A stretch of DNA of 64,000 nucleotides from Alphaproteobacteria bacterium (GTDB lineage: Bacteria; Pseudomonadota; Alphaproteobacteria; GCA-2731375). The notes under the pieces are model-generated. The model did not search any database and was not told where the DNA came from. It was given only the letters and a program-made list of their open reading frames with translations. The position numbers and the translations under genes are program-made. Positions 5,066 through 57,489 of this stretch are shown piece by piece; position 1 is the first letter of the stretch; each line of letters opens with the position of its first letter. The stretch spans positions 7,008,001 through 7,072,000 of the forward strand of contig CBDDPY010000002.1 in assembly GCA_965232515.1 (NCBI GenBank), read 5' to 3'.

Positions 5066-5086
5066 ATCATCATCGATGAAACTGAG

Positions 5087-8372: not shown

Positions 8373-8373
8373 C

Positions 8374-9817: not shown

Positions 9818-9835
9818 TTATTGGAGGAGACCACC

Positions 9836-10144: not shown

Positions 10145-10157
10145 GGGTGACGGCGAT

Positions 10158-13808: not shown

Positions 13809-13837
13809 ACGCAGCAGGAAGATAGGAGGAAGAACCC

Positions 13838-16856: not shown

Positions 16857-16859
16857 GCG

Positions 16860-25332: not shown

Positions 25333-28300
25333 CTACTGCGATGGCTGCCAGTTCGCTGAAATGACCGGGATCAGATCATCCTCGTAACTTTGCGGCAATG
25401 CTGTTTGCCCTGCCGATGGCGGTGAGAATGCAGCCATGGCATTGACAAGATTCTGCACTTGGCTATTCAGCAGCGTGTCACCATCGCTGGTTTCGAACAC
25501 TTCGATCTGGTGAGCCGCGTTGTCGAACCAATTCTGGATTGTTATCCGATCGTCGGTGCCAATCACGCTGACAGAAAGATCGAGACCGTCCTGTGCAAAC
25601 CAGATCTGATCATTTGTAATCGCGGCATCGAACAGAACACTATCACTGCCGGACGAAGCCGCAGATTCGATGATCGAATCATGGCCGTCGCCACGACCGA
25701 ACAAATAGATATCGCCGTCGTTACCACCGGTCAGCGTGTCGTTGCCGGCACCGCCGTCCAGCGTATCTGCGCCGACGCCGCCATCCAGGCTGTCGACTCC
25801 CAAACCACCCGACAGCACATCATCCCCGCCATTGCCGGATAACACGTCGTCGCCCGAATAGCCTCTCAGTGTGTTCGCGCTGAGATCGCCATGAAGCACA
25901 TCGGCGTAGGCCGAACCATCGACATTCTCGATCTCGAACAACAGATCACCTTCTGCGTCACCACCGGTGCCGGATCCGTTCAATAAGTCGACAGTCACGC
26001 CTGCACTCGCGTTCGTATAGTCGGCGGTGTCAGTGCCAGCCTGTTCGCTATCGCCGTAGTCAGTAACGTTGAACAATGCCAATGGCGTGTTTCCGACCAA
26101 GTCTTCGACAACACCACCCGCAGCGGCATCAAACCGATAATAGTTGGTCAAGCCGGCGGGTAGCCGATTGAGCTGCAAGGGCACGTCAAGGTCGCCCTGG
26201 ATCTCCATCGCCGTTCTGACCGCGTCGAAGAACCGAAGCTCATCAATCTCGCCCGAAAAGACCTGATTGGGATCGAAGCCGCCGCCAAGGCTATCCTGCT
26301 CTTGACCGAGTATCAGGACTCCGTTGGTTGACAGACTCGCGCCTTGCTGGAGCGTCGATGTGCCTTGAGAAGCGCCGTCAATGAAGACCTCGACTAGACC
26401 ACTTGTACTGTCCCACGTGACGGCCAGGTCGTGGGACGTTCCATCAAAGAGCGTTGTCGCGGCGTTAACGGCGAAGGTTGCCGACTGAGACTTGATGAAA
26501 ACACGCAGATCACCGGTGGCGGCAACGAACAGCAGGAGTTCATTGTCAGATCCGGCCACGGCGTAAGAGACCAGTGGGCTGCCGCTGGTGGAAATTCCGT
26601 TTGACGTGAACCGCATCTCGATGGTGAAGGCTGAGGTCGGCAATTCCGTTACGTTATTGGCTTGGGCGCGCTGATTTGTCTGGCCACCGGTGTTCAGAAC
26701 AAGCGTCCGGTCTGTATAGCGGCTGCCGCCATGCAACAAATCGGCACCTGCGCCACCAACTAGTCGGTCATCGCCTTCGTCGCCAAATAACCGATCGGCA
26801 CCATCGTTACCGATCAACGTGTCATTGCCAGCGCCGCCGGCCAAATCGTCGTCTCCGAGACCGCCAGAAAGCCTATTTTCGCCGGTGTCGCCGATTATCT
26901 GATCGTTGTGATCCGTACCGACAACATCCTCGACGTTTGTCAGCGTATCTCCTTCAGCATCACCGCCATGACCCGTACCGGCCGCAAGATCTATGTCTAC
27001 CGCAGCGCTGGAGGCGGCATAGTCGATGACGTCGACATCGGCACCGCCATCGATTGCGTCTGCTCCGGCGCCGCCGCGAAGAATGTCGGCGCCTTCATCG
27101 CCAGACAGCGTGTCGTTCCCGGCGCCACCTTCGAGTGTATCGTTTCCTTCTCGACCGGACAGTGAATCGTTCCCGCCGGCGCCTGAAAGCGTGTTGTCGA
27201 ATTCGCCGCCGACCAGGTTGTCCGCGGTATTCGATCCGACAACGTTCTCGACGTTCAGGAACGTGTCGCCCTCGGCATCGCCACCGGCGCCCGTGCTGTT
27301 GGCGAGATTGACCGTGACGCCCAAGGCCGACTCGGCGTACCAGGCCGTGTCGATGCCGTCGCCGCCGCTCAGGTGGTCGCTGCCGGCGTCGCCGATCAGA
27401 CGGTCGTCGCCGGCGTCGCCCTTGAGAATGTCGTCTCCGTCATTGCCGCGCAGGATGTCGTTGCCGGCATCGCCGGCCAGGATGTCATCGCCCGCGCCGC
27501 CGGCGAGGCTGTCGTGGCCGGCACCTCCGGTCGCGATACGATCGGGTCCGGCGAAGATTTTCGCATAGATACCCTCGAGCGAGGCGTCCTGGGCGTGCGA
27601 CGACCAGGTGACGACGAAGCCACCATCGGGACGGGCAGCGACAACCGGCATCGATTGATGGCTATAGGTCTCGTCGTTGATCTGAAACTCGCCGCCGACG
27701 GTCGCGCCAGTGGCGTCATAGCGTTGGCCGTAGATGCCATAGCCGTTGCCGTCCTGGTTCTTCGATTGCCAGACAACGACGAACCCGCCGTCAGTCAGCG
27801 CCGTTACCGAGGCGTTGTCCTGCCAGTCGGCCGTCGTCGTGTTGACCGGGAACTCGGCGCCAGCCGCATTCCCGGCGCTATCGTAGCGTTGGCCGTAGAT
27901 GCCCAAGCGGTCGCCGTCCTGGCCGTCGGACTGCCAGACGATGACAAGGCTGTTGTCTGACTGCACGGCCGCTGACGCCTCGCGTTGATCGCCGATTGTT
28001 GTGGTGTTAACGGGGAACTCGGATCCGACTTCCGTGCCATTCGCATCGTAGCGCTGTCCGTAAATACCGCGGCCGCTGCCGTCCTGGTCCACCGACTCCC
28101 AGACGACCAGGAAGCCGTCGCCCGACAACGGCACGACCCAGGGATAAGCCTGCGTGCTTGTGGTGTGAGTGTTGACCTGGAATTCGCCGTCGACCGCCGT
28201 ACCGCTGGCGTCGTAGCGCTGACCGAAGATGTCGAAGTAGTTGTTGACGTCCAGATGCGCCGTGTCCCAGATCGCAACGAATCCGCCGCCGTCCAAGGCC

Positions 28301-31300
28301 GCGAGCGATGGACGGGATTGTCCCCGCGTCGTACTGGTATGGATCTGGAATTCGTTGCCGGCTGCGGCGCCAGTGGCGTCGTAGCGCTGGCCATAGACCC
28401 CGGCGCCGTCGCCGTCCTGGTTCAAGGACTCCCAGGCAACCACGAAGCCGTGATCGGCCAGCACGGTGACGGTCGGCGCCGTCTGCTGGTTGGCTGTGGT
28501 TGTGTTGACCAGGAATTCTGACCCGACGGTATGGCCATCGGCGTCGTAGCGCTGGCCATAGATACCGTCGCTCGAGCCATCCTGGCCATCCGAGACCCAG
28601 ACGATGACAAACCCGCCGTCGCTGAACACGGCGGCAGATGGCTCGTTCTGCGCATTGGGCGTATGGCTGTTGACCGCAAACTCCGGTTCCGACGGACCCA
28701 CCACATCGATTGTGATCGTGGCGACGGAGACGTTGCCGTCGGCGTCGGTGACCTTGTAGTCGAAGCTGTCGGCGCCGGCGTAGCCCGCCGCCGGCGTATA
28801 GGACCAGGAGCCGTTGGCATTCAGCGTCAGCGTGCCGTGCGCCGGGCCCCTGGCCTGGGCATAGGTCAGCAGCTCCGGCGACGTTGCGTCATCGATCGCC
28901 CAGAGCTGGCCGGCGACCGTGCCATCCATGCTGACCGATGCAACGCCGTCCATCGCCTCGGGCAGTGCCGCAACAACGACATCGCCGTCGGCAAAGCGTA
29001 GCTTTTCGATACCGGTCAGACGATCCGTGCCGTCGGCCGGTGCCGCCCGTCGGTCTTCGACGATCGTCTCGACGCCATTCCGTCGCACCCAATAGTCGGC
29101 GATGTTGCCGCCATAGGCTGCGACGTCGGTGCCCGCACCGCCATCGAGAACATCATCGCCGCCATTGCCGCGAAGGACATCGTCGCCCGCGCCGCCGATC
29201 AGCGTGTCGCCGACAGCGCCGCCAGCCAGCCCATCGTTGCCGTCACTGCCGGAAAGATCTTGACCTTGCCCTTCGTAGACCTTGGCGAACACGCCATAGT
29301 CGCTGCCGTCCTGGCCTAGTGACGACCAGGCAACGGAAAACCCACCGTCAGGCCGGGACCAAACCGCTGGATTGGATTGGGCACCGGCGCTGTAGTCGCT
29401 AATTCGGAACTCGTCGCCGATACTGTTGCCTGCCGAGTTATAGCGTCGGCCATAAACGCCGTTGTCCGACCCATCTTGGCCAAAGGAACGCCAGCTGACG
29501 ATAAAACCGCCATCCGCAAGTCCGGCTGCGACCGGCACGTGCTGACTATCCGTCGTGTAGCTGTTGACCTGGAACTCACCGCCGATCGTGTTGCCGGCAT
29601 TGTCATATCGCTGCCCGAAGATGCCAAAGCTCGAACCATCTTGGCCGTCCGAGGGCCAGACAACCACGAAGCCACCACCCGACATTGCTGCTACGGACGG
29701 GACGTTCTGCACGCCTGTGGTGTAGACATTGTTGACACGGAACTCGGTGCTCAGCGCCGTACCGTTGGCATCGAAACGCTGGCCATAGATGCTGCTGGCG
29801 CTCCCATCCTGGCCTTCCGACTGCCAGACCACAACAAGACTGCCGTCCGATAGTTCGGCAGCGGACGGGTTGGCTTGCTCTCCGATCGTATGGCTATTGA
29901 TGCCGAATTCACCACCGACCTTCATGCCGGTTGCGTCATAGCGTTGCCCATATACTCCTGCCAGATCGCCGTCTTGGCCCCGACTGCTCCAAGCCACGAC
30001 AAAGCCTCCGTTGGACAAGGATGCAATCCAAGGTTCGGTTTGGTCGCCTGTCGTGTAGGTGTTGATCTGAAACTCATTACCGGTTTTGTTGCCGGCCGCG
30101 TCGAAACGCTGGCCAAAGACGCCGAGTGCACTTCCGTCCTGGCCGTAGGAGCGCCAGGCCGACACGAATCCGCCATCCGCCAGGGCGGCGACAAATGGGC
30201 GCGACTGATCGCTCGTTGCGTACGAGTTTATCTGAAACTCTTGACCAAGCTTCGCGCCATTCGCATCGAACCGCTGACCGAAAACGCTACTGGAACTGCC
30301 ATCCTGCACGTCTGAGCGCCAGATAACCACAATGCTGCCGTCCGATAGGGTTGCGATCGACGGCTCGCGCTGAATGCCGCTCGTATAGCTGTTGACCTGG
30401 AATTCGGTGTCGCCGAAGACCTTGGTGTAGATGCCATAGTCGCTGCCGTCCTGGCCGAACGAATGCCAGGCCGCAACAAAGCCGCCGTCCGGGCGGCCGG
30501 CGACAACCGAAAAGCTCTGGTCGCCGGCCGTGTAATCGTTCAACCGGAACTCTTTGCCGACCCGGTTGCCGGCCGCGTCGTAACGCTGGGCATAGGCGCC
30601 GCTGCCGCTAACGCCGCCGTCCTGGAGGTCGGACGACCAACTGACGAGGAAGCCGCCGTCTGCCATGGCGGTAATCGTTGGTACGGACTGCGCGCCCGTC
30701 GTATAGGTATTGACCTGGAACTCGCCACCTACCGTCGCGCCGATGCCATCGTAGCGCTGGCCATAAATGCCGTAGCTGCTGCCGTCCTGGCCCAGCGACT
30801 GCCAGATGGCAACGAAACCGCCGTCCGCCAGCGCCGCGGCGGCAGGATAGGACTGGATGTCGTTCGAATACGTGTTGATCTCGAACTCGCCGCCGACAGC
30901 GACTCCCGTCACATCAAAGCGTTGGCCGGTAATGCCCTGAATGCTGCCGTCCTGCGACGACGCCCAGATCACGGCAAAGCCGCCGCCCGCCAGACCGACA
31001 ACCGCCGGGTCGCGCTGATCGCCAACCGTCGTGGTGTTGATCCGGAACTCGCCGCCGACGGTGGCACCGCTGGCATCGTAACGCTGCCCATAGACGCCAT
31101 AGCTATCGCCGTCCTGAAGGTTTGACCGCCAGGCGACGACGAAACCGCCGTCCGCCAACGCGCCGACCGCCGAAACGTTCTGAACGTCGGCAGTATGGGT
31201 ATTGACGCGGAACTCATTGCCGACGGCCATGCCGCTGGCGTCGTAGCGCCGCCCGTAGATACCGAGATTGCTGCCGTCCTGTTCGGACGAGTGCCAGACA

Positions 31301-34300
31301 ACGACGAAGCCGCCACCCGAGAGTGCGGTTATTCGCGGATCATATTGACCATCGACGTTGTATGTATTGACGCGGAACTCGGCATCGATCGCGTTGCCAA
31401 TGGCATCGAACCGCTGGCCGTAGACGCCGTATCCCGATCCATCCTGGCCGTCCGAGCGCCAAACCACCACATGGCCGCCGTCGGGCAGGACCGCAATCGA
31501 TGGCGTCGACTGTATGCCCGCCGTATAGCTGTTGACCTCGACTTCTTCGCCCAACGCAATGCCGCTTTCCGTCGGCCTCACGTCGATGGCGACGCGGGCA
31601 ACCGAGACGTTGCCGTCGCCGTCGGTGACCTTGTAGTCGAAGCTGTCGGCGCCGGTGTAGCCAGGATTCGGGGTGTAGGACCACGAGCCATCGGCATTGA
31701 GGGTCAGTGTGCCGTTTGCCGGGCCCTTTGCCTGGGCGTAGGTCAGCAGTTCCGGAGACGTCGCCTCGTCGATCGCACCCAGCTGGCCGTTGACCGTGGC
31801 GTCCTTGCCGACCGCTGCAACGCCATCCACCGCTTCCGGCAGCAATGCCACATCGACGTCGCCGTTAGCAAAGCGCAGCGTTTCAATAGCGGTCAAACGA
31901 TCCGTGCCGTCCGCCGGCGATACCCGCCGGTCCTCGACGACCGTCTCAAGGCCATTCCGCCGTACCCAATAATCCGCGATGTTGCCGCCATAGACCGCGA
32001 CATCGATGCCGGCGCCGCCGTCGAGAACATCATCGCCGCCGTTGCCACGAAGGACGTCGTCGCCCGAAGCACCGCTCAAGCTGTCGCTGACGGCACTGCC
32101 GGCCAACGCATCGTTGCCGTCGCCGCCGCTCAGGCTCTGGCCGTCGCCCTCATAGACCTTCGCATAAACGCCGTAGCCACTGCCGTCCTGGTCTTGCGAT
32201 TTCCAGGCCGTGACAAAGCCGCCGTCGGCCCGGCCTGCCACGACCGCGAAGCTCTGGTCCCCCGCCGTGTAGTCGTTCAGCCGGAACTCGCCGCCAACCG
32301 CGTTCCCCGTCGCGTCGTAACGTTGCGCGTAGGCGCCCATACCGGTCGCGCCGCCGTCCTGCAATTCCGACGACCAACTGACCAGGAAGCCGCCATCGGC
32401 CAGCGCCGTCACCGCGGCGACCGACTGCGCCCCCGTCACATGGCTGTTGACCTGGAACTCGCCGCCGACGGTTACGCCGGAAGCGTCATACCGCTGCCCA
32501 TAAATGCCGTAGCCCGAACCGTCCTGACCAAGCGACTGCCACACCACCACGAACCCGCCATCCAACAGCGCCGCCGCCACCGGATAGGCCTGGATGTCAC
32601 TGGTGTGCGTGTTGACCTCGAACTCGCCGCCCAACGCCACGCCCGCCGCGTCGTAACGCTGACCGGTAATGCCCTGAATGCTGCCGTCCTGCGACGACGT
32701 CCAGACCACCGCGAAGCCGCCCCCCGACAGCCCGATGACCCAAGGATCGCGCTGGTCGCCAACCGTTGTCGTGTTAATCCGGAACTCGCCGCCGACAGCC
32801 GTCCCGGTCGCGTCGTAACGCTGGCCATAGACGCCTAGCGTGTCACCGTCCTGGCCGCTCGATCGCCAGGCGATCACATAGCCGCCGTCCAATAGTCCGG
32901 CCACCGACGGCACCCATTGGTGATCCGTCGTGTAACTGTTCGCCCGAAACTCGCCGCCAACCGCTGTGCCGGCCGCGTCATACCGTTGCCCGTAGATGCC
33001 GAGACCGCCGCCGTCCTGACCGTCCGACGGCCAGACAACAACAAAACCGCCGTCCGACAACGCCGCCACCCGCGGTTCGTATTGATCGCCGACCGTATGG
33101 CTGTTCACCCGGAACTCACCGCCAACCGCTGTACCGGAAGCGTCATAGCGTTGGCCATAGGCGCCATAGCCAGAACCGTCCTGCAGGCTCGAACGCCACA
33201 CAACCACATGCCCGCCGTCCGACAACACCGCAACCGACGGCGTCGACTGCTCGCCCGTGGTGTAGCTGTTCACCTGGAACTCGGTGTCCCCATAGACCTT
33301 GGCGAACACACCATAGTCGCTGCCGTCCTGGCCGAAGGACTGCCAGCTGATGACAAAGCCGCCGTCTGGACGGGCGTCGATGGCCTGAAGGCGCTGTTCG
33401 GCCGGCGTACCGGGCGTGTAGTCGCTGACCTGGAACTCGTCGCCGAGCGGATTGCCGCCGGTATCATAGCGCCGCGCAAAGACCTTGTTCTCGGGCGCGT
33501 TGACACTGTCATGTGACATCCAGGCGATGACAAAGCCGCCGTCAGCCAGGGCCGTCACGCGGGCATATGCCTGGTTGTTCGCTGTTTGCGTATTGACCTG
33601 AAACTCCGGACCGACAACACCGCCGGTGGCGTCGTAACGTTGGGCGTAGACGCCATAGCCGGAGCCATCCTGCCCGTTCGACACCCAGACGACGATGAAG
33701 CCGCCGTCATGCAACGCACCGATTGCCGACGACAGCTGGTCGCCGGTGGTGTGGCTGTTGACCTGGAACTCCACACCCATCCGGCTGCCGTTGGCGGCAA
33801 ACCGCTGACCGTGGACGCCGTAGCCGTTACCGTCCTGGCCGTCCGACCGCCAGGTCACGACAAACCCACCGTCTAGCAGTGCCGTGACGACGGCTGCAGA
33901 TTGCATGCCTGCCGTGTGGGTGTTGATCTGGAACTCACCGCCGACGACCTTGCCTTCGGCATCGTAGCGTTGGCCATAGATGCCGCGCTCGCTGCCATCC
34001 TGGCCCTCCGCCGACCAGGTCACGACGAAGCCATCATCTGGCAGCACGGCGATATCCGAGCCGCGTTGGGCGCCGGCGGTGGTGGTGTTTACCTGGAACT
34101 CACCGCCGACCGGCGTGCCGCTGGCGTTGTAGCGCTGGCCGAAGATACCGGTGCTACTGCCGTCCTGGCCATCGGACCACCAGACGACGATGAACGCGCC
34201 GTTCGAGAAGCTGGCGACCCGGGGGTTTTCCTGATGGCTGGTGGTATAGCTGTTGACCCGGAACTCCGGCCCGACGGCGTCGCCGGTCGCGTCGAAGCGC

Positions 34301-37300
34301 TGCGCGTAGACGTTGCTGGTGGCGCCTTCCTGATTGTCTGACCGCCAGGCGACCACGAAGCCGCCGTCGGGGAGGGTGGCCATATGACCCTTAGCTTGAA
34401 AGCCCGTCGTAAAGGTGTTGGCCCGGCGCTCCTCGCTCGTCGCGACGTTGGCCAATTGGTCGGCGACGTCGATGGTGATCTGCCCGACGGCGACATTGCC
34501 GCCGGCATCGGTGACCTTGTAGTCGAAGCTGTCGGCGCCGGTGTAGCCGGACGACGCGGTGTAGGTCCAGGAACCGCTGGCATTCAGCGTCAGCTGTCCG
34601 TGGGTCGCATCCTGTGCCAAGGCGTAGGTCAACAGCTCCGGCGCCGTCGCGTCGTCCGTCGCGCCCAATTGGCCGTTGATGGTGCCGTTCCTGCCGACCG
34701 AGGCAATGCCGCCCACCGGGGTCGGTAGCGTCGCGAGGTCGACATCGCCGTCGGCAAAGCGCAGGGTCTCGATGCCGGTCAGCGTGTCGGTGCCGTCCGC
34801 CGGCGTCGCCCGGCGGTCCTCGACGACCGTCTCAACGCCATTGCGACGGATCCAATAGTCCGCGATGTTGCCGCCGTAGATCGCGACATCGCTCCCGGCG
34901 CCGCCGTCCAGAACGTCATCACCGCCATCGCCACGCAATACATCATCGCCAGAGGCGCCGGAAATCAGGTCGCTGCCGCCATCGCCCAACAACGTATCGT
35001 GGCCGATGCCGCCGCTAATGACCAATCCGGCCGGGTCGTCATGGACGTCAATCACGACCTGACCAATCGAAACATTGCCGTCGGTGTCGGTAACTCGATA
35101 GTCAAAGCTGTCGACGCCGGCATAGCCCGGGTCCGGGGAATAGGACCAAGAACCGTCGGCGGCTAGCGTTAGCGTCCCGTTGGCCACGTCTTGGGCAATG
35201 GCATAGGTCAGCAAATTTGATGCCGTGACGTCGTCGACCGCGCTCAGCTGCCCTGCGACCGAACCGTCCTTCTCGACTGACGCTGAACTGTCGACGGTCT
35301 CCGGCGATGCCGCGACATCGACATCGCCATCGGCGAAGCGCAGCGTCTCGACGCCGGTCAGCGTGTCGGTGCCGTCCGCCGGCGTCGCCCGGCGGTCCTC
35401 GACGACCGTCTCCGAGCCATTGCGCCGGATCCAGTAGTCCGAAGCATTGCCGCCGTAGACCGCGACATCGCTCCCGGCGCCGCCATCCAGAACGTCATCA
35501 CCGCCATTACCCTGCAGGACGTCGTCACCCAACCCACCGCTCAGAACATCACCGCCAAGCCCGCCGGCCAACGCATCGGGACCGTCGGTAGAGGTCGACA
35601 TGCTGCCGGAAAGGTCGAGCCGGTACATCCGGGCATAGGCGGTGCCCTGAATCACGCCGACTTGCGTGTCCGACCACCAGCTGAACAACACCCGTCCATC
35701 CGACGCCGTTGCGACGGACGAGTTGCGCGGCCCCTCCTGAGCGGCGGTCTCCGAAACCAGAAACTCGCCCCCGATGGCCTGCCCGGCACTGTCGTAGCGC
35801 CGTGCATAGGCGCCCAGGCCGCTGTCGTAGTGGAGCCCCGAGGTGATCGCCGAGTGATACCAGGTGACGACAAAGCCGCCGTCCGGCAACGCCGCCACGT
35901 TCGAGCCGGATTGATTGCCCGATGTCGTCTCGTTGACCCGGAACTCGTCGCCAACGCTGTTGCCGTCGGCATCAAAGCGTTGACCGTAAACCCCGCCGGA
36001 ATCACCATCCTGGCCGTCGGTCTGCCAGATCACAACAAAACCGCCGTCGGCAAGGCCGGCTACCGTCGCGGCTCCTTGATAGCCCGCCGTCGTGCTGTTG
36101 ATCTGGAACTCACTGCCGACGGTTGTGCCGGTGGCATCATAACGCTGGCCGAAAACCCCGCCGCCGTCGCCGTCCTGGCCGTCCGAACGCCAGGTGACGA
36201 CAAAGCCGCCACCGGACAGACGGCTTATATTGACGTCCGACTGCGTGCCGGCAGTGGCCGTGTTGACCCGGAACTCCGCCGTGCCAACGGCCGCACCGTT
36301 CGCATCATAGCGCTGGCCATAGACGCCCCATTCGCTCCCGTCCTGGAGGTTCGAGATCCAGACGGCGACAAAGCCACCATCGGCAAGGGCCTCGACACGC
36401 GGATTGAGTTGATAGTCCGCCGTCGTCGTGTTGATCCGGAACTCCGCGCCAACGGCCGTGCCTGAGGCGTCGTAGCGTTGCCCGTAGGCGCCCGACTGCG
36501 ATCCGTCGTGATAGGAATACCAGGTGACGACAAAGCCGCCGTCGATCAGCGCGGTGACATTCGCGCCTTCCTGAATGCCGGTCGTATGGGAGTTGACCTG
36601 GAATGCGGAGCCAATTGGCGTACCGTCGTCGTTGAATCGGCGGCCAAAGACGCCCCAACTGTCGCCATCGGCGGCATGCGACATCCACACCAATACATAA
36701 CCGCCGCCAGACAACAGCGCGCCCACCGGGTGATGCTCGGTGTGCGGCGACTGGTCGCTGACAACGAACTTGTCGCCCAGCACGGACCAGGCAGATGGCT
36801 CGGCGGACACATCGACCCCGACGGTCGTCACATCGCGCAAACCGCCGGCGTCCGTCGCCGTGATCTCAAAACTGTCGGCCCCGGTAAAGTCGGCCGCCGC
36901 CTCATACTCATAGTCGCCCGTCGCGGCATTCGTTATCCGTACCCGGCTACCTGAGGACAACGTAACCCAGCCATTCGCGTCCGGTGTGCCGGGGATGCCG
37001 AAGGTCAGGTTCTCCACCCCGCCGTCGTCCGTCGCGCCGACCGAACCCGATGCCAGACCGCCTGACGTCACCGAGACCACGCCCGCCGTCACATCCGGCG
37101 ATGCCGCGACATCGACATCGCCATCGGCGAAGCGCAGCGTCTCGACGCCGGTCAGCGTGTCGGTGCCGTCCGCCGGCGTCGCCCGGCGGTCCTCGACGAC
37201 CGTCTCCGAGCCATTGCGCCGGATCCAGTAGTCCGAAGCATTGCCGCCGTAGACCGCGACATCGCTCCCGGCGCCGCCATCCAGAACGTCATCACCGCCA

Positions 37301-48784: not shown

Positions 48785-49477
48785 TTAATCTGCTAATCTG
48801 GGAATGAGTATATTTGTGAGTTTTTTTCGATTCATGTTTATTTTGTCAATATTTTTGCATTTTGTTAAAATATATCTATTTATATCTAGTGAATACGTGT
48901 ATTCATTGTGCAAATATATATTTTGATTTATTCTTCTATTCATAACAATATGAGAGGTCTTGTTTAATATTTCACCATTGTTCCTTAAGGCACTTCGTTT
49001 TTCTACAAACTCATACTCAGCAGTTATCTGCTTTATTGGTTTGGCTGTGATGCAGACCTGTCCAGAGTCCAGTGGCATCGCGCATAGTGGATGATCAGCA
49101 CTAGCGAGTTCAAAGCGATACATGCCCGGGCGCAACTTGCTTATGCTATTTCGGCGGGAACTAGTGACCTCTGCTTCAACGAAGGCGTATCCGGCAACTC
49201 GAAGAAACTCAGACATTTGATGCCTGCAAATATTGCTGCAACCACCAAAGCGATACTGCGAAGTCCGCTCGGCGATGATGTGAATTTCAACAATGCCTGC
49301 GTGGAAAAATCCTTCCACGTCTCTAGTCGGTCTATAGATCTGTAAACCAGCATCGCGTTCGCAGATTTGATCGAATTTTGCAGTCGAAGGTGATGTTCCT
49401 TCAAACCGTAAGGAACACCCCGCTGTAGTCGTTGCGATGATAATAAAAATAACCCACGATATTTTATAGTTCATCAT
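48785..49477 (-). CDS. AT-rich Cys-containing lipoprotein (candidate immunity protein or FrpD-like partner)
   Basis: Signal peptide with TAG|C lipobox; several Cys; immediately upstream of the giant gene. Confidence 0.8.
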   Translation of the reverse strand: MMNYKISWVIFIIIATTTAGCSLRFEGTSPSTAKFDQICERDAGLQIYRPTRDVEGFFHAGIVEIHIIAERTSQYRFGGCSNICRHQMSEFLRVAGYAFVEAEVTSSRRNSISKLRPGMYRFELASADHPLCAMPLDSGQVCITAKPIKQITAEYEFVEKRSALRNNGEILNKTSHIVMNRRINQNIYLHNEYTYSLDINRYILTKCKNIDKINMNRKKLTNILIPRLAD

Positions 49478-49673
49478 TTTCCAAGAACCTACCTAATGTA
49501 ATATTCTGTTTAACAACATCATCGTCGGAAAGCCAATGTTCCTGTATTGAAATTCATTATTTTCACTTGCAGATCCTGTTACCTTGTTTTCCATATCCAC
49601 CATCTGTCCGTGTCTGAAAACTGCTCAGTCGATCCGCAATACCAAACAGGCTGACAGGAACTTCACCGAGGTT

Positions 49674-50288
49674 TCACCACTCCACGACACTCACGCCCTG
49701 CCCACCGGGTGCGGGCTGCAGGGACTTCACCTTGCGGCCCTTGAAGGTTTCTTCTTTTAGTTGGCGCATGGCTTCTTCGGTGCCGCCGAAGGGACAGACG
49801 AGGTCGATGAGCCAGAGCTGGTCGCCGGAGCGCCATTCGGCGGGCGCGAGGCGACGGACTCCGGAAGCGAGACGGGCGGCGGCCTCGTCGTTGAGGAACG
49901 CCCAGGAGGCGAAGGCGACGGGCAGGTTGTCGCGGCGCCAGAGCCGGAACTGCTTCAGGCCGATCGGCGGCATCAGCAGCCATTCCAGGTCCTGCACGAA
50001 CATGTGCTTGTGCAGCGGCGAATGCATCATCACCCAGGCCGCCTGGCCGAGGATGCTCGAGAGGTCAGGCGTGATGTTCGGGCGCTGGGGGGCGGCGCCG
50101 GCCTGGTCCGCCGGGCCAGCCTCGGCGGCGGCTTGCGGCTCGGCGGCCGGCGGTTCGCCTGCTTGCGGCGCCGTGGCCGGGGGCGGCGTGGCGGCGGCGC
50201 CGTTGCCGGCCTCCGCGCCGCTGCTGTCGTCGTCGCTGTTCGAGGCGGTGGTGGGGTCGGTCTCGTTGCCGGCGGTGATGTCGGTCAT
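49674..50288 (-). CDS. hlyC: RTX toxin-activating lysine acyltransferase (HlyC/RtxC family)
   Basis: WVMMHSPLH (catalytic His), ASWAFL, EWRSGDQLWLIDLVCPFGG; Ala/Pro-rich N-terminal extension. Confidence 0.92.
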   Translation of the reverse strand: MTDITAGNETDPTTASNSDDDSSGAEAGNGAAATPPPATAPQAGEPPAAEPQAAAEAGPADQAGAAPQRPNITPDLSSILGQAAWVMMHSPLHKHMFVQDLEWLLMPPIGLKQFRLWRRDNLPVAFASWAFLNDEAAARLASGVRRLAPAEWRSGDQLWLIDLVCPFGGTEEAMRQLKEETFKGRKVKSLQPAPGGQGVSVVEW

Positions 50289-50479
50289 GTCCGTGCTCCG
50301 TTGCTGGTGCGCCGTGCCGCGATGCAGGCGTGGCGCCAACGGCGCGCGGTCTGTCGCGCGCCTGTCGAAGTGTGGCACGGATCGGGGCGGGTCAGGATTT
50401 GATCTGCGGTCGTGCCAGTGGGGCGGTGGCGGTCGTGTCGGTGTGCCGGGACTTGCGCGACCGGTACCGGTGGCGACGG

Positions 50480-50980
50480 CGCATGGATGCCGGCCTGCGC
50501 CGTTATGACGGGGGAGGGGGCGAACGCACGTCTGCGTAACCGCGACAGCCTCACATTGTCATGCCCGGGCTTGACCCGGGCATCCAGAGCGGCATTCGCG
50601 CGTTGTCGCGGCTCGTCCAGCTTCCTGCCTGTCGCAACCGTTTGTCTGGATCCCTGGATCAAGTCTGGGGATGACCAAAAGTGACTCGGGAGTGACCAAA
50701 AGCGACTCGTGGATGACCATGGGTGAAGCATGGACGAGGGGTGGGCGGCGGTTGGAGACCGTCGTGACGTCGGCTTCATCGTCATGCCGGCGGCGGCCGG
50801 CGTCCGGGGCTTGCGTTCACCGCTGAACGGTTCAGAGAGGTACGGATCATCGGCGCCGATTGGCGTCGGCGCGATGACCTGTCGGCGGTTGGCATGCGTC
50901 GCGGGCGGCAATGACGCGTGGCCGTGACGTGTGTCGGAAACGGCAAGCCCGGATGCCGGCCGGCGGCGGCATGACGGTGT
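50480..50980. repeat. cluster of REP/MITE-like palindromes
   Basis: GTCATGCCCGGGCTTGACCCGGGCATCCA paired with TGGATCCCTGGATCAAGTCTGGGGATGAC; second pair near 50781 and 50945; 21-bp tandem at 50672-50719. Confidence 0.7.
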
Positions 50981-51217
50981 TGCGATGAGATTGTGCGGGT
51001 GAGTTGCCGTCGTCCGAATTGCGGTGACGGTTTGGTCGCGGTACGTCAGATACGGAGACTCAGCGAGACTCGGATACGTCACATCGACCCCCAACTTCAC
51101 AACCGCAAATGACTCGACAGATCGACCATCGATTGCGGCTACGACCCGAACACAATCTTCGACCGGAATCGGTTCTGAACGCAAGGGTTGAGTCGCGGAC
51201 TGGGCGAAAAAAGTTGC

Positions 51218-52618
51218 TCAGCGCTCGCGAATGGCCTCGTCGCGGTAGCGCAACAGCGGCGTCAGCACGTATTCGATGACCCGGCGCTGGCCGGTCTTGA
51301 TGTCGACCGTCACCGCCATGCCCGGCGTCAGGCGCATGTCGTTGCCGTCGGCGCGGATGGTCTCGCGCGACATGGCGACGCGGATCGGGAACACGAGGCC
51401 CATACCTTCGCGCTCGATCGCGTCGTCGGAAACGTGCAGAACGTCGCCCGAAATGGTGCCGTACTTGGTGAACGGAAACGACTCGACCTTGATCTCGACG
51501 GCCTCGCCCGCGGCGACGAAACCCTTATCCTTGTTGAGCATCATCGCTTCGACCTCGAGCCGCTCGTCGTCCGGCACGATGATCATCAGCTGCTCGTCGG
51601 TGGTGACGACGCTGCCGACGGTATGCACGGCGAGCTGGTGCACCATGCCGTCGACCGGCGCGACGAGCTGGTTGCGCTCGTCGCGGCGCACGGCCTTCTT
51701 CAGCTCCTCGGCCAGCCCCGCGATTTCTTTCCGCAGGTCCTCGCGTTCGGCTACGGCGTTGGCGAGGAATTCGGCCTGGGTCTCGGCCGCCTGCCGGCGC
51801 AACGCCTCGATCGCGGCCTCGGCGGCGCGGTAGCTGCCCTCTGCGCGGGCCAGGTTGGCCTCCTCCTCATGCAACTGCTGCGCGACCTCGAGATAGGCGG
51901 CCCGGCTGCCGAAGCCTTTCTCGGCGAGACGCACGCGCTGATCGACGCGCTCGCGGATCACGGCGACCATCTGGCGTTGGCGGATGCGGGTGTCGTCGGC
52001 GCTGGCGAGCTCGGCGTGGCGCTGGCTGATCTGGCCGTCGATGGCCGCGAGCTCGGCCCGGTGCGCGGCGACGGCGGTCAGGAACAGTTGCCGCTGGCCC
52101 TCGACCAGCACGGGATCGCCGTCGGCCGGCGGCTCGAAGGCGGCGTCGGGCGGGTCGAGTTTGAACCGCGTGACGGTGATCAGCGCGTCGAGCCGGGCAG
52201 CCTCGACGCGCGCGGTCATCAGTTCCTGCGTCAGGCGCTGGCGGTCGGCGGCGGCATCGGTCGGATCCATCTCGAACAGGATGTCGCCGGCGCGCACGTG
52301 GCTGCCGTCGCGCACGTGGATGGCGGCGACGGTGCCGGTCTCCAGCGGCTCGATGACCTTGACTCGGCCAGACGGCACGATCTTGCCCTGGGCGGTAGCG
52401 TGGATGTCGATCTTGCCGAAGGTGGCCCAGGCGAGCGCCGCCGTGAAGAAGGCGATGATCAACCACAGCGTCAGGCGGCCGGCGGGCGAGGCGGGGCTGT
52501 CCATGATCTCGATCGCCGCCGGCAGGAAGGCGCGCTCGGCGGCGTTGCGGTCGGGCTTCTTCGGCTCCGCCTTCTCGGCAGCGATCGACGCCTTCAGTAC
52601 CTGCATCACGCGGCCCAT
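51218..52618 (-). CDS. hlyD: T1SS membrane fusion protein HlyD
   Basis: AFLPAAIEI, APVDGMV, FPFTKYG and PGMAVTVDIKTGQRRVIEYVL motifs. Confidence 0.95.
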   Translation of the reverse strand: MGRVMQVLKASIAAEKAEPKKPDRNAAERAFLPAAIEIMDSPASPAGRLTLWLIIAFFTAALAWATFGKIDIHATAQGKIVPSGRVKVIEPLETGTVAAIHVRDGSHVRAGDILFEMDPTDAAADRQRLTQELMTARVEAARLDALITVTRFKLDPPDAAFEPPADGDPVLVEGQRQLFLTAVAAHRAELAAIDGQISQRHAELASADDTRIRQRQMVAVIRERVDQRVRLAEKGFGSRAAYLEVAQQLHEEEANLARAEGSYRAAEAAIEALRRQAAETQAEFLANAVAEREDLRKEIAGLAEELKKAVRRDERNQLVAPVDGMVHQLAVHTVGSVVTTDEQLMIIVPDDERLEVEAMMLNKDKGFVAAGEAVEIKVESFPFTKYGTISGDVLHVSDDAIEREGMGLVFPIRVAMSRETIRADGNDMRLTPGMAVTVDIKTGQRRVIEYVLTPLLRYRDEAIRER

Positions 52619-54864
52619 CAGTCGGCGGCTCCGGCATCCGGTTGCCCGCCGACGTCGCCGACCTGGTGGCGGTAGAGCGTCGCGTAGCGGCCGCCCTGGC
52701 GCAGCAGCTCGTCATGCGTACCCATCTCGACGACGCGGCCGGCCTCGATGGTGATGATGCGGTGGCATTGACGCACGGCGGCGAGACGGTGGGCGATGAT
52801 GAAGACGGTGCGGCCCTTCGTGATTTGGCGCATGTTCTGTTGGATGGCGTATTCGGATTCGTAATCCAGCGCCGAGGTCGCCTCGTCGAAGATCAGGATG
52901 CGCGGGTCGGTGACCAGCGCCCGGGCGATGGCGATACGCTGACGCTGGCCGCCGGACAGATTGCTGCCGCGCTCGCCGATGGCGGTGTCGTAGCCCTGCT
53001 CGAGCTCGAGAATGAAGTCGTGCGCGCCGGCGAGCTGGGCGGCGCGGACCACGCGGTCCATGGGCATGCCGGGGTCGGCGAGCGCGATGTTCTCGCGCAC
53101 GGATCTGTTGAACAGCACGTTCTCCTGCAGCACGACGCCGATCTGCCGGCGCAGCCAGGCCGGGTCGACCATGGCCAGGTCAACGCCGTCGATCAGCACG
53201 CGGCCGCTTTCCGGCACGTAGAGGCGCTGCAGCAGCTTGGTCAGCGTGCTCTTGCCCGAGCCCGAGGGGCCGACGATGCCGACGACCTCGCCGGGCGAGA
53301 AGTCGAGCGTGATGTCCTTCAGGATCTCCGGCCCGCCCGGACGGTAGCGGAAGGTGATGTGGTCGAAGGCGATGCGGCCGCGGATCTGCGGCAGGGCGCT
53401 GCGGGCGCCGCCGCCCTCGAGTTCGGTGGGCGCGTTCAGGATGTCGCCGAGGCGGGCAAGCGAGATCCGCACCTGCTGGAATTCCTGCCAGAGCTGGGCC
53501 AGGCGCAGGATCGGCGCGCTGACCCGGCCGGCCAGCATGTTGAAGGCGACGAACTGGCCGACCGTGAGGTCGCCCGACATCACCAGCTTGGCGCCGAACC
53601 AGAGCGTCAGCGCGATGACGACCTTGTTGATGAGCTGGGTGATCTGACCGGCGACGTTGCCGAGGTTGGTGGCCTTGAAGCTGGCGCTCACGTAAGCCGC
53701 GAGCTGGTCTTCCCAGCGGCGCTGCATCTGCGGCTCGACCGCCATGGCCTTGAGCGTCTCGACGCCGGTGACGGCCTCGACCAGGAAGGCCTGGTTCTCG
53801 GCGCCGCGGTTGAACTTCTCCTCCAGGCGATGTCGCAGGATGGGCGTCACGAACACGGCGAGCGCGACATAGAACGGGATCGAGGCCAGCACGATCAGCG
53901 TCAGCGTCGGGCTGAACACCCACATCACGGCGAAGAAGACGAAGGTGAAGAACAGGTCGATGACGAGCGTCAGCGCCGAGCCGGTGAGGAACGAGCGGAT
54001 GGTTTCGAGCTCGCGCACGCGAGCCACTGAATGGCCGGCCTGGCGCGCTTCGAAATAAGCGATCGGCAGCGACACCAGATGCCGGAAGATGCGGGCGCCC
54101 AGCTCAACGTCGACGCGGCTGGTGGTGTGCGCGAAGACGTAGTGGCGCAGCGCGCCGAGCACGACCTCGAACAGCGAGACCGCGATCAGGCCGGCGACCA
54201 GCACGTCGAGCGTGGTCAGGCCGCGGTGCACCAGCACCTTGTCGATCACCACCTGGAAGAACAGCGGCGTGATCAGCGCGAAGAGCTGCAGGAAGAACGA
54301 GGCGACCAGCACCTCGCCGAAGAGGCGCCGGTAGCGCACAATCGAGGGGATGAACCAGGTGAAGTCGAACTTGCGCAAGGCGCCGGCGAGGCTCGCCCGC
54401 GTCGTCAGCAGGATCAGCGCGCCGGTCCAGGTGGCTTGAAATTCTTCGAGGCCGAGCTCGCGCGGGCCCCGGTCGCGCGGGTCCTGGATCAGCACCTTGT
54501 CGTCGGCGGCCTTTGCGAGCACGCAGAAGGCGCCGTCGGCGAGCTCGGCGATCGCCGGCAGCTCGACGCGGCCGAGGCGGTCGACGGACGACTTCACGCG
54601 CTTTGCTTTCAGGCCGACGCGCTTCGCCGCGCGCAGCAGATCGTCGGCGCCGAACAGAGCGCCCTGCAGGCCGAGGTCATGCTGCACCTGGGCCGGCTCC
54701 ACCGCGATGCGGAAGAACCGCGCCATCAGCATCAAACAGGCCAAGCCGGTGTCGACTCGCGGCTCTGCGCCGGCCTTTCCGTCGCCGTCCGTGCTGGTGT
54801 CTACGCCACGCTCAACGGATTCCGTCGGCGCAGCCGGTGTTGGCTGTGTCGTCTCGCCATCCAT
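52618..54864 (-). CDS. hlyB: T1SS ABC transporter HlyB with inactive C39-like domain
   Basis: FDFTWFIP, GPSGSGKST, LSGGQRQR and FDEATSALD motifs; DTGLACL lacks the catalytic Cys. Confidence 0.96.
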   Translation of the reverse strand: MDGETTQPTPAAPTESVERGVDTSTDGDGKAGAEPRVDTGLACLMLMARFFRIAVEPAQVQHDLGLQGALFGADDLLRAAKRVGLKAKRVKSSVDRLGRVELPAIAELADGAFCVLAKAADDKVLIQDPRDRGPRELGLEEFQATWTGALILLTTRASLAGALRKFDFTWFIPSIVRYRRLFGEVLVASFFLQLFALITPLFFQVVIDKVLVHRGLTTLDVLVAGLIAVSLFEVVLGALRHYVFAHTTSRVDVELGARIFRHLVSLPIAYFEARQAGHSVARVRELETIRSFLTGSALTLVIDLFFTFVFFAVMWVFSPTLTLIVLASIPFYVALAVFVTPILRHRLEEKFNRGAENQAFLVEAVTGVETLKAMAVEPQMQRRWEDQLAAYVSASFKATNLGNVAGQITQLINKVVIALTLWFGAKLVMSGDLTVGQFVAFNMLAGRVSAPILRLAQLWQEFQQVRISLARLGDILNAPTELEGGGARSALPQIRGRIAFDHITFRYRPGGPEILKDITLDFSPGEVVGIVGPSGSGKSTLTKLLQRLYVPESGRVLIDGVDLAMVDPAWLRRQIGVVLQENVLFNRSVRENIALADPGMPMDRVVRAAQLAGAHDFILELEQGYDTAIGERGSNLSGGQRQRIAIARALVTDPRILIFDEATSALDYESEYAIQQNMRQITKGRTVFIIAHRLAAVRQCHRIITIEAGRVVEMGTHDELLRQGGRYATLYRHQVGDVGGQPDAGAAD

Positions 54865-55111
54865 CTCTTCACAGAGCTGCCGGCGGACGAACGGCGTCTT
54901 ACCCGCGCCGTTTGACCCCCACCTAAGCGGCCCCCCACAACTCGACCACTACGGTAGATGGAATTCGGCGGCGGATAAAGTTATCAATTGCACCGGCGCC
55001 GATCTGCGACATCGCGCCGCGCAAGCCAGCATGCATCAGCAAATGTTGTTGGGTGTGTGCGTGTCGAGGGGCGACGAAGCCCTTGCTAAGACTGTGATTG
55101 AGAGGGGGGAT

Positions 55112-56662
55112 GTGGTGACGCAAGCGGGCAATCGTCAGCAACGCCGTCGCGCCCGGCGCAGCGCCGGCGCGCCGCCGGCCAAAGCGCAACGGTTGAGCGC
55201 CGAGGCCGCGGCGATGCTGGCGGCCGGCGACCTTGAGGGCGCGGTCGCCGCCTTCGAGGCGGCGCTCCGGCTGGCGCCGGAGAACGCCGACCTTCTGAGC
55301 AATCTAGGTTTGGCCCTGAAGCAGGCTGACCGTGACGACGAGGCGATCGCCGTGCTGCGGCGCGCGTTGACGCGTTCGCCGCACCATGTTCCGGCGCTTA
55401 AGGGCCTGCACAACCTGCTGCAGGGGCGCGAGGACGACGACGGCCTGCTGCCGGTGCTGCGGGCGCTGGTCGCCGCCGCGCCGGACGAGACGATCCATCA
55501 CGCCAACCTGGCGAACGTGCTGTTGAAGCTGGACCGGCGTGATGAATCCGAAGCCGCGTTCCGTGCCGTGCTCGACCGTAATGCCGACGATCTGAATGCG
55601 CTGGTCAATCTCGCCAGCCTGCGGCAGGCCGCCGGCGCGGCGGCGGAAGCGGAGACCTTGCTGCGCCGTGCCTTGACGCTATCGCCTGACGATCCGGCCG
55701 CGAACTACAATCTCTCGCGCTTGCGTCTTCTCGCCGGCGATTTTGACGAGGGCTGGCGGCGACACGAGTACCGCTGGCAGTGCGAGGACTTTCAAGGCTG
55801 GCTGCGGCCGTTCCGGGTTCCGCGCTGGGACGGCTCGGTGTTCGCGGGTCGGACCTTGCTGGTGCACGCCGAGCAGGGCATCGGCGATACACTGCAGTTC
55901 CTACGCTATCTGCCGCTGGCGAAGGCGCGGGGCGGCCGTGTGCTGCTGGAGGTGCAGCGTGGCCTCGGTCGGTTGCTGGCGGGTTTCAGTGGTGCCGATC
56001 AGATCGTGGAGCGCGCGCCGCTCTGGCCGGCCGACGACAAGCTGCCGCCCTATGATCTGCATTGCCCGTTGATGAGCCTACCGTTCGTGCTGGGTCTCGA
56101 GCGTCGCGAGCTCACCGGACCCGGCCCGTATCTCCACGCCGATGGACATCGCGTGAACGCCTGGGCCGAGCATCTGGCGGCCCACCCTCGGCCCCGCGTC
56201 GGCCTGGTCTGGGCCGGCAATCCCCGCAACCGCATCGATGCGCAACGCTCGTTCGGATTTGACGCGCTGTCCGAGGTGCTCGCCGCAGCGGGACCAAGCT
56301 GGTTCAGCCTGCAGGTGCCAACTCAATCGGATCGCGCCGCGTCTCTGGCGGCGGCGGGCGTGAGCGATCTCGGAGCCGAACTCACCGACTTCGCCGAAAC
56401 CGCGGCCGTGCTCGCCAACCTCGATCTATTGATCTCTGCCGACAGCGCACCTGCCCACCTCGCCGGCGCGCTCGGCTATCCTGTTTGGGTGCCGACCTAC
56501 GAGCCGCCGGAATGGCGCTGGCTGACACAGGGAACCGCCACGCACTGGTATCCGACCATGCGCCTCTTCCGGCAACCAGCGCCGGGCCAGTGGACGCCCG
56601 TCTTCACTGCCATCGCCGCTGCACTCACCCAAGCCGTCGCTGCTAGCCGTAAGGCTGGGTGA
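55112..56662 (+). CDS. TPR-repeat glycosyltransferase (GT9/heptosyltransferase-like C-terminus)
   Basis: TPR helices, then EQGIGDTLQFLRY, VGLVWAGNP and DSAPAHLAGALG; G-rich RBS before GTG55112. Confidence 0.87.
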   Translation: MVTQAGNRQQRRRARRSAGAPPAKAQRLSAEAAAMLAAGDLEGAVAAFEAALRLAPENADLLSNLGLALKQADRDDEAIAVLRRALTRSPHHVPALKGLHNLLQGREDDDGLLPVLRALVAAAPDETIHHANLANVLLKLDRRDESEAAFRAVLDRNADDLNALVNLASLRQAAGAAAEAETLLRRALTLSPDDPAANYNLSRLRLLAGDFDEGWRRHEYRWQCEDFQGWLRPFRVPRWDGSVFAGRTLLVHAEQGIGDTLQFLRYLPLAKARGGRVLLEVQRGLGRLLAGFSGADQIVERAPLWPADDKLPPYDLHCPLMSLPFVLGLERRELTGPGPYLHADGHRVNAWAEHLAAHPRPRVGLVWAGNPRNRIDAQRSFGFDALSEVLAAAGPSWFSLQVPTQSDRAASLAAAGVSDLGAELTDFAETAAVLANLDLLISADSAPAHLAGALGYPVWVPTYEPPEWRWLTQGTATHWYPTMRLFRQPAPGQWTPVFTAIAAALTQAVAASRKAG

Positions 56663-57385: not shown

Positions 57386-57489
57386 AATGACGGAATGACG
57401 CACAGTGACGCACCTTCGGTGAACGCCGATAACGAGATCACTCCTCAGCAACTCCTGAATTTGTCCGTCATGTCGGTCATTGCGTCATT
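57386..57489. repeat. convergent TGAC repeat arrays, candidate replication origin
   Basis: Three (A/G)TGACG units on + (57386-57413) and three ATGAC units on - (57465-57489) at the 3' end of the primase-helicase gene. Confidence 0.5.

Follow-up and report, generated by a model that had tools for sequence, protein, structure and literature searches.

We analysed a stretch of 64,000 nucleotides of alphaproteobacterial DNA, called here the window. All coordinates are positions within it, and the residues of the giant protein that forms our main subject are numbered from the TTG codon at 48783. Between 25333 and 54864 the minus strand carries, in order of transcription, the genes for an HlyB-type exporter, an HlyD-type membrane fusion protein and an HlyC-family acyltransferase, then a small gene for a 230-aa lipoprotein-like protein, and finally a giant repeats-in-toxin (RTX) gene (Table 1). 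An earlier note, made by inspection of the sequence, had described this co-oriented run, which is borne out by the coordinates of the open reading frames (ORFs) together with their Pfam matches. The domain order of the giant protein is likewise as that note described it, with an enzyme-like region followed by a hydrophobic segment, a conserved segment and RTX repeats. We refer to the hydrophobic and conserved segments (aa 591-1107) as the chassis, and to the region before them (aa 1-590) as the head. The observation around which the rest is arranged is that the small gene and the head together form a compositionally distinct cassette, and that this cassette varies among relatives that retain the chassis.

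Table 1 Features of the locus and its surroundings in the 64,000-nt window.
Feature	Positions	Strand	Basis or remark
Conjugative transfer module	3131-18104		Relaxase with DUF3363, type IV secretion system coupling protein, VirB11-like ATPase, TrbE, TrbL, VirB8-like, CagX/TrbG-like, TrbI
Tyrosine integrase at 3' end of giant gene	23742..24947	-	Pfam Phage_integrase E 6.7e-23
Giant RTX ORF, 7,816 codons	25333..48783	-	Single ORF, one base beyond the 230-aa ORF
C-terminal region, aa ~7081-7816	25333..27543	-	RTX blocks, pentaxin/LamG, HCBP_related, presumed type I secretion signal
Pentaxin/LamG-like lectin domain	26197-26679	-	Pfam Pentaxin E 4.6e-28, Laminin_G_3 E 2.4e-19
Repeated stalk modules, aa ~2140-7080	27544..42363	-	Pfam Big_9, Cadherin_5, Cadherin_4
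RTX nonapeptide blocks and linkers, aa ~1270-2140	42364..44976	-	Pfam HemolysinCabind E 4.7e-51, HCBP_related; motif clusters
FrpC-type self-processing module, aa 1108-1269	44977..45462	-	phmmer against PDB 6sjw/6sjx (FrpC), E 6.1e-20
Chassis part 2, conserved alpha/beta domain, aa 834-1107	45463..46284	-	Motif IEGGDIYxKRAL
Chassis part 1, Gly/Ala-rich hydrophobic segment, aa 591-830	46294..47013	-	Kept in 7 proteins
Variable N-terminal region (head), aa 1-590	47014..48783	-	GxSxG hydrolase-like domain in aa ~1-300
Low-GC cassette: small gene and variable N-terminal coding region	47100..49670		GC 0.29-0.49, against 0.65-0.75 on both sides
230-aa exported lipoprotein-like protein	48785..49477	-	Hydrophobic N-terminus ending T-A-G-C
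HlyC-family lysine acyltransferase	49674..50378	-	PF02794 E 2.7e-39 over aa 109-234
hlyD-hlyC gap, 840 bp	50379-51217		GC 0.60-0.70; no recognisable gene
HlyD-type membrane fusion protein	51218..52618	-	Pfam HlyD_3 E 3e-18
HlyB-type ABC exporter with N-terminal C39-like domain	52618..54864	-	Pfam ABC_membrane E 4e-57, ABC_tran E 4e-36, Peptidase_C39 E 2e-21
Divergent tetratricopeptide repeat (TPR) and GT9-like glycosyltransferase	54497..56662	+	Pfam TPR families; Glyco_transf_9 E 1.9e-5 (24.5 bits; cut-off 22)
VapE-like primase	57477..59483	-	Pfam VapE-like_dom E 1.2e-73
414-aa ORF	59923..61167	-	No Pfam match
Second tyrosine integrase	61318..62499	-	Pfam Phage_integrase E 5.8e-29

The low-GC island of 2.5 kb comprises exactly the small gene and the first ~590 codons of the giant gene, and its downstream edge coincides with the point at which homology to relatives begins. 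Such relatives are rare. The chassis was matched in two of 60 relatives; pattern matching turned up three chassis loci among 185,579 species genomes, and two loci came from a scan of 241 million metagenome records, while a set of 5.8 billion proteins yielded one chassis relative (P0004) in the size range 906-2,585 aa and the window protein itself alone at 4,298-13,678 aa. We compared seven chassis proteins, namely those of the window, of G021 (a Rhodospirillaceae metagenome-assembled genome (MAG) from the same family), of Magnetospirillum aberrantis SpK, of G033 (a Sneathiellales MAG) and of the metagenome contigs L016 and L017, together with P0004, which has no genomic context, so that six loci can be compared with their surroundings.

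In all 21 pairs of these seven proteins the homology found by BLASTP (E <= 0.01) begins at the chassis, and the sole similarity upstream of it is a Hint domain common to L016 and to a separate toxin ORF of G033. The composition follows the same boundaries at every one of the six loci, with a GC content of 0.61-0.69 in hlyC, 0.35-0.46 in the small gene, 0.38-0.54 in the head and 0.58-0.65 in the chassis. Each cassette is thus a low-GC island between hlyC and the chassis, as expected for the N-terminal effector cassette that the earlier note had proposed. The same note had named, as the pattern that would count against its proposal, homologues that all share one N-terminus and one upstream gene. 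We see the opposite: the seven heads are unrelated by BLASTP, and the small proteins are unrelated in 14 of 15 pairs. The single related pair of small proteins is that of the window and G021, the pair whose heads also align weakly, and this indicates that head and small protein co-vary.

A small ORF lies between hlyC and the giant gene at the loci with context, G033 excepted. There the equivalent region is a separate 446-aa ORF, which encodes a cell-wall hydrolase of the Hydrolase_2 family (PF07486, E 7e-8; 33.4 bits, cut-off 27) and ends with the N-terminal part of a Hint domain. In L016 a 355-aa head of no matched family is followed by a complete Hint domain and then by the chassis. Apart from Hydrolase_2 and Hint in G033, Pfam and NCBIfam searches named nothing in the heads and small proteins of the relatives. 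The peptidoglycan hydrolase of G033 points to a bacterial target. Both activities that can be interpreted, on lipid and on the cell wall, act from the periplasm, which fits partner proteins that are exported or membrane-anchored.

The Hint domain of G033 is split over two ORFs (L012, G033:C35, 6216-9459). The Cys start and a TPGH block end the hydrolase ORF; hlyC comes next, and then a chassis ORF that opens with ~77 aa and a Hint C-terminal ..HTY..VHN motif followed by Ser. At a further locus, G172 (L031, G172:C52, 3031-5166), hlyC is followed by a chassis ORF that starts with the Hint C-terminal motif. Either a naturally occurring split Hint/BIL domain that acts in trans, or a scar of recombination, could account for the arrangement in G033 and G172.

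In the public annotation the giant protein (P0006, 7,213 aa) is called from residue 604, at the chassis start. This leaves the entire head (46975-48783) unannotated, so that systems of this kind are invisible to surveys based on annotation. That call could be taken at face value. The protein would then be a large RTX adhesin, and its 5' end and upstream gene mere recent foreign insertions with no joint function, the head being inert or untranslated. The lack of a clear homologue of the head is in keeping with this, as a search of 1.84 billion representatives gave one marginal match (E 3e-4, over a 22-residue stretch) and none at E <= 1e-10. However, the reading frame of the head runs through 590 codons without a stop although the DNA is AT-rich, and each of the other five frames contains 24-52 stops. 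The start codon is likely GTG 48768, five codons after TTG 48783, and it has GGAGGG 8 nt upstream, which again speaks for translation of the head. In addition, five other loci show the same fused layout, and their heads differ. We therefore consider a functionless foreign 5' end very improbable.

Within the head, a GDSSG motif (G160-D-S162-S-G164) has its serine, Ser162 (codon 48298-48300), where the earlier note had placed it. The motif aligns with AHSLG of the G021 protein in a weak BLASTP alignment of the two heads (19% identity, E 0.011) that puts the two GxSxG serines opposite each other. The ten language-model clusters listed as nearest to the window head are all Lipase_3, Phospholipase-like or Mbeg1-like (score 0.94-0.95), a result that serves as a lead and not as a test. 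Taken as such a lead, motif and neighbours suggest that the window head may be a GxSxG (lipase-like) hydrolase.

The 230-aa protein has no match in Pfam, NCBIfam or the PDB, and in the set of 5.8 billion proteins it matches itself alone. Its one distant homologue is encoded upstream of the G021 gene (23% identity, E 3e-12 to 1.7e-11) and shares six conserved Cys with it; this homologue has a plain transmembrane anchor and lacks a lipobox Cys. At the six loci with context, every small protein has a hydrophobic signal or anchor segment at its N-terminus and 3-7 Cys in its sequence. These features, together with the co-variation described above, make the 230-aa protein a candidate immunity protein. 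A complex prediction for head aa 1-300 with small protein aa 22-230 gave no verdict either way (score 0.00, against a mark of 0.32).

The two parts of the chassis differ in character. The hydrophobic segment (aa 591-830) consists of 34% Gly and Ala and 10% charged residues, with a Kyte-Doolittle peak of 2.02 at aa 797-819, and its model shows helices, at low confidence. For the conserved alpha/beta domain (aa 834-1107) the model, from an alignment of seven rows, reaches a predicted local distance difference test score (pLDDT) of 70-95 over much of the length. Lys946 (codon 45946-45948) is the sole invariant Lys in the seven-sequence chassis alignment. The best rows of a wide structural search (VIA) with the chassis model were membrane helical hairpins that did not reach significance (Z <= 7.5); Foldseek gave no match in the PDB at E <= 0.001, and a language-model search with the conserved alpha/beta domain returned no usable neighbour.

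The conserved alpha/beta domain also occurs, apart from the rest of the chassis, in large alphaproteobacterial proteins of G370 (E 1e-38), G264 (in two places), G331 and G241 (L026-L030; profile A5). The ~18 kb fetched around these domains contain no hlyB or hlyC. With only the conserved domain and neither gene nearby, these proteins were not counted as members of the chassis family. The domain may be an older module that was recruited into the chassis.

The secretion and acylation genes travel with the chassis. Neighbours were counted at five related loci, within the stretches fetched around the chassis gene. HlyB homologues (62-78% identity) adjoin the chassis gene at all five and HlyD homologues were found at four, while an hlyC gene adjoins the chassis gene at every one and also in G172. 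The window HlyC matches ApxC (PDB 4whn) at E 2.2e-17 and retains the SPLH and ID..PFG motifs, which we take to carry the catalytic His and Asp. Its gene is single-copy in the 7.39-Mb genome. A classical HlyC has ~170 aa; the window protein carries an Ala/Pro-rich N-terminal extension of ~108 aa (50055-50378), and the HlyC proteins of the window, L011, L016 and L017 share an Ala/Pro/Gly-rich N-terminal extension of ~80-110 aa ahead of PF02794. The earlier note had started from the premise that HlyC acts on cytolysins of 1,000-1,700 aa. This is too narrow, since the HlyC homologue CdiC acylates the giant class IV CdiA effector (PMC8510554, in the part available).

The presence of an HlyC-family gene whose product looks catalytically intact from its motifs, and the order of enzyme, hydrophobic segment, invariant-Lys segment and RTX, which mirrors that of CyaA as the earlier note gave it, invite comparison with toxins directed at eukaryotes. 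On that account the system would resemble CyaA or the MARTX (multifunctional autoprocessing RTX) toxins, as an RTX cytolysin or a lipase toxin aimed, for instance, at protist grazers or a host; HlyC would activate a pore-forming segment that delivers a lipase into eukaryotic cells, and the small gene would be accessory or unrelated cargo. The LamG/pentaxin lectin-like domain near the C-terminus could bind eukaryotic glycans. However, residues 1-1300 contain no Pfam family at E <= 0.01, and hence no RTX-cytolysin domain model, and they have no clear match to a solved fold; at E <= 1, FrpC is their only sequence match in the PDB. Homologues of the N-terminal pore-forming and acylated domains of HlyA/CyaA-type cytolysins were not found in Pfam or among PDB sequences, and the 'CyaA-like' delivery chassis of the earlier note is thereby reduced to an analogy of layout. 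Pfam scans of the whole protein turned up no cysteine protease domain (CPD) or MARTX-type domains, within a library whose content of MARTX models was not checked. A toxin for eukaryotic cells also does not predict a co-varying exported small protein, a GC break, or a peptidoglycan hydrolase as the head of a relative. We judge it quite unlikely.

The one match to residues 1-1300 is a self-processing module of the FrpC type at aa 1108-1269, directly after the chassis, which had been missed in the earlier note. At its scissile site the window protein reads ..GGGAL-PLVLDLDGDG.., with Leu-Pro (Leu1107-Pro1108) in place of Asp-Pro. The residue before the first Pro of the module is Leu in the window, L016 and L017 and Pro in G021, and is Asp only in M. 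aberrantis. In FrpC the side chain of the preceding Asp is the nucleophile of self-processing (PMC7078468, in the part available). As Leu replaces this Asp, the canonical clip-and-link reaction is not expected in the window protein.

The module brings in the main and serious rival to a toxin system. In Neisseria meningitidis the lipoprotein FrpD, encoded upstream of frpC, binds FrpC's N-terminal domain with a Kd of ~0.2 nM (PMC5233953, in the part available). The window genes could form an anchor pair of the same type, in which the lipoprotein docks the N-terminal domain of a giant RTX adhesin on the producing cell, for adhesion or biofilm formation and not for killing; head and partner would then co-vary through binding each other. 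In addition to the module itself, this explanation has in its favour that a lipoprotein-like gene precedes the giant gene, as frpD precedes frpC, and that repeats of adhesin type (Big_9, cadherin-like, LamG) make up most of the protein. It draws further support from two sister loci, G009:C42 (L034, 5697-16000) and G033:C38 (L035, 6405-14000), in which one or two small ORFs of low GC come after hlyC, and after them a giant RTX ORF whose 5' part is low in GC and which has an FrpC-type self-processing module, and in which no chassis match was found. The same two loci may mean, given that they lack the chassis, that the cassette principle is wider than the chassis family.

Several observations are nevertheless left unexplained by an anchor pair: the GxSxG head and the cell-wall hydrolase head of G033, the hydrophobic segment suited to membrane insertion, the universal presence of HlyC, and small-gene copies that are kept without a giant gene in G001. 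The small protein is not similar to any PDB chain at E <= 0.1, and hence not to FrpD if the FrpD chains are in that copy, and its G021 homologue has a plain transmembrane anchor rather than a lipobox Cys. On balance we hold the anchor pair to be unlikely, while giving it more weight than any other rival.

The G001 copies lie on a 9.5-kb contig (C645) of a genome from the same genus. This contig carries an hlyC that is 95% identical to that of the window and, upstream of it, a partial hlyC 3' end (L033, 5100-7800). Each hlyC copy is followed by a low-GC ORF with multiple transmembrane segments (~115-146 aa; the 146-aa ORF has a GC content of 0.30), and unrelated high-GC genes lie beyond. No chassis or giant gene is present on the 9.5 kb; the G001 assembly is 81% complete and fragmented, so that a giant gene could lie elsewhere in the genome. 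By analogy, the layout resembles orphan immunity genes beside a recombination flank.

Beyond the self-processing module, the giant protein is built from calcium-binding repeats and adhesin-like domains. HemolysinCabind was matched by Pfam in all three pieces scanned (E 4.7e-51, 4.5e-25 and 8.9e-61), HCBP_related was found near the C-terminus (E 5.7e-10), and a regular expression for RTX-like motifs gave 80 matches in 19 clusters. With its Gly/Asp-rich nonapeptide repeats and the adjacent ABC exporter and membrane fusion protein, the sequence qualifies as an RTX protein. Each stalk module opens with a short RTX block, continues with a Big_9/cadherin-like domain and closes with 6-7 repeats of ~55 aa; the domains and repeats together account for ~5,000 aa. 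The ~55-aa repeats (59 motifs, spaced mostly 54-60 aa apart) stand in blocks of mostly 6-7, with one block of 14; they appear propeller-like and have no match in Pfam or among PDB sequences. A tandem duplication in the stalk (35296-39139) has a period of 1794 nt (598 aa) with 8 mismatches over 2,050 nt, and is either recent or a repeat sensitive to assembly. The giant protein contains no cysteines.

The wider surroundings bear out the mobile-element setting that the earlier note had described, with integrases, a VapE-like primase, a relaxase, a coupling protein and Trb/VirB genes, and an integrative conjugative element probably carries the toxin locus as cargo. A tRNA-borne island was rejected, as the window contains no tRNA gene. 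The sole long ORF in the hlyD-hlyC gap (299 aa) has no Pfam match and looks non-coding. A three-gene defence-type operon of the ABC-3C kind (DUF3732, MC3, CTD7) occupies 19392-23013, in a stretch of GC 0.51 adjoining the integrase, and a gene with an adenylate/guanylate cyclase catalytic domain (63168-63980) lies at the window edge beyond the second integrase. The earlier note had also included the divergent TPR-GT9 gene in the system. As none of the five related loci has a homologue in the stretches fetched, gene content suggests that it is probably not part of it. Fragments from a second DNA sample (X3) are identical to the window, so this sample does not represent a variant strain.

Taken together, the features of the locus are best accounted for by a T1SS (type I secretion system)-secreted polymorphic toxin with an exchangeable N-terminal toxin domain and an upstream immunity gene, in the opposite polarity to the contact-dependent growth inhibition (CDI) and Rhs systems. 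We give this explanation somewhat better than an even chance. Its constant parts would be the HlyB/HlyD exporter, HlyC, the chassis, the FrpC-type Ca-dependent module, the RTX blocks and the cadherin-like and propeller-like stalk. The variable part would be a horizontally exchanged low-GC cassette between the hlyC 3' end and the chassis junction, encoding a small exported or membrane-anchored protein and then the N-terminal ~350-600 aa of the giant protein.

Acylation, translocation, toxicity towards a target cell and immunity would be linked as follows. The protein, free of cysteines, would be exported unfolded and C-terminus first, and extracellular Ca2+ would then fold the RTX blocks and the stalk, which would bind a neighbouring cell. 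HlyC would acylate the chassis, with Lys946 as the candidate site, and the acylated chassis may put its hydrophobic helices into the outer membrane of the target. The N-terminal enzyme would thereby reach the periplasm and attack membrane lipids or, in one relative (G033), peptidoglycan. In the producer and its siblings, the periplasm-facing small protein would neutralise the cognate head. The modules for release would vary: L016 and G033 have a Hint domain immediately behind the head, and M. aberrantis has a self-processing module with Asp-Pro.

A number of results weigh against this explanation. Only three of the seven heads can be interpreted, two as lipase-like by motif only and one as a cell-wall hydrolase. 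For the window head, no catalytic His is conserved in the two-sequence alignment with G021, no enzyme family was matched by hidden Markov models (Pfam at E <= 5, NCBIfam at E <= 1), and the head model, from an alignment of two rows, has a pLDDT of 38.7 and is unusable as a fold. The 'lipase' of the earlier note thus comes down to the GxSxG motif and its language-model neighbours. The release chemistry known from FrpC should, to judge from the scissile site, not work in the window protein. The small gene is upstream of the toxin gene, as in frpD-frpC, for which we know of no antibacterial function; the immunity genes of CDI and Rhs systems lie downstream. Neither the head nor the chassis nor the small gene occurs a second time in the genome of the window, and no orphan module was found there. 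Finally, the family is small, at seven chassis proteins, and all but one of the six relatives are known from MAGs or metagenome-derived records, so that some gene orders may be artefacts of assembly. Of the overall interpretation in the earlier note, the central idea of an N-terminal cassette has held up, while homology to CyaA, the assignment of a lipase and the role of the glycosyltransferase found no support.

In known polymorphic toxins (CDI, Rhs, MafB, LXG and others) the variable toxin is C-terminal and the route is type V, VI or VII secretion or a related one, and CDI and Rhs systems have boundary motifs of the VENN and PxxxxDPxGL types. The present system resembles CDI and Rhs in its giant filamentous delivery protein, whose body is conserved and whose toxin domain can be exchanged, in the adjacent co-varying small gene, in the lower-GC cassette and in the possible orphan immunity genes. 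It differs in its export by a T1SS and not by type V or type VI secretion, in having the variable domain at the N-terminus and not at the C-terminus, and in having the small gene upstream and not downstream. The cassette is bounded here by the hlyC 3' end and a Gly-rich junction, and no VENN- or PxxxxDPxGL-type motif was seen. The closest parallel for the acyltransferase is class IV CdiA/CdiC, where an HlyC-family enzyme likewise serves a giant effector (PMC8510554, in the part available).

With FrpC and ApxIVA the system shares a homologous self-processing module, a lipoprotein gene directly upstream and an N-terminal domain of unknown function preceding the module. It differs from them in the replacement of the scissile Asp by Leu, in the added hydrophobic chassis, the HlyC partner and the stalk of ~5,000 aa, and in a small protein with no detected similarity to FrpD. 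The likeness to HlyA, CyaA and ApxA lies in a T1SS operon with an HlyC-family acyltransferase and in the order of hydrophobic segment, Lys-bearing segment and RTX, to which CyaA adds, by layout, an N-terminal enzyme comparable to the head that is enzyme-like here by motif. In contrast to those toxins, the hydrophobic and conserved segments of the present protein show no detectable homology in sequence or fold, the protein is ~5x larger, and its head is variable and has a partner gene.

The Cdz proteins are small. Cdz of Caulobacter crescentus, a contact-dependent bacteriocin with glycine-zipper proteins that is compared here by its description only, mediates T1SS-dependent contact killing by Gly-rich hydrophobic surface-associated proteins with an immunity protein (PMC5380434, in the part available). 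Like the present system it is alphaproteobacterial and combines a T1SS with Gly-rich proteins and a dedicated immunity protein; the available part of that description (PMC5380434) shows no RTX or HlyC link for Cdz and no modular enzyme head or stalk. In the part available, the 2012 survey of polymorphic toxins by Zhang et al. mentions the T1SS only as the route of large RTX toxins and describes no such system (PMC3482391). Among Creative Commons PMC papers and bioRxiv, we found no description of T1SS/RTX polymorphic toxins with N-terminal cassettes.

There is a fair chance that the system defines a new class of polymorphic toxins. A broader proposal, plausible though a little short of an even chance, is an undescribed alphaproteobacterial class of T1SS polymorphic toxins whose exchangeable cassette, set between hlyC and a conserved, acylated chassis for insertion into membranes, would encode a periplasmic immunity protein and an N-terminal head, with Hint/BIL modules behind the head or FrpC modules behind the chassis for release; FrpC/FrpD, ApxIVA-type proteins and the G009/G033 sister loci may then share the same toxin-immunity logic and not be adhesins. 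From such a view a hypothesis would follow about what the FrpC self-processing module is for and what FrpC/FrpD do. T1SS substrates keep their secretion signal at the C-terminus. If the proposed explanation is true, the exchangeable toxin and its immunity gene have moved to the 5' end because of that constraint, HlyC gains a function outside cytolysins and CdiA, and, as they have no detectable relatives, the heads and small proteins may be new enzyme and immunity folds. It would add a secretion system to interbacterial warfare, and would make the cassette logic of polymorphic toxins independent of polarity.

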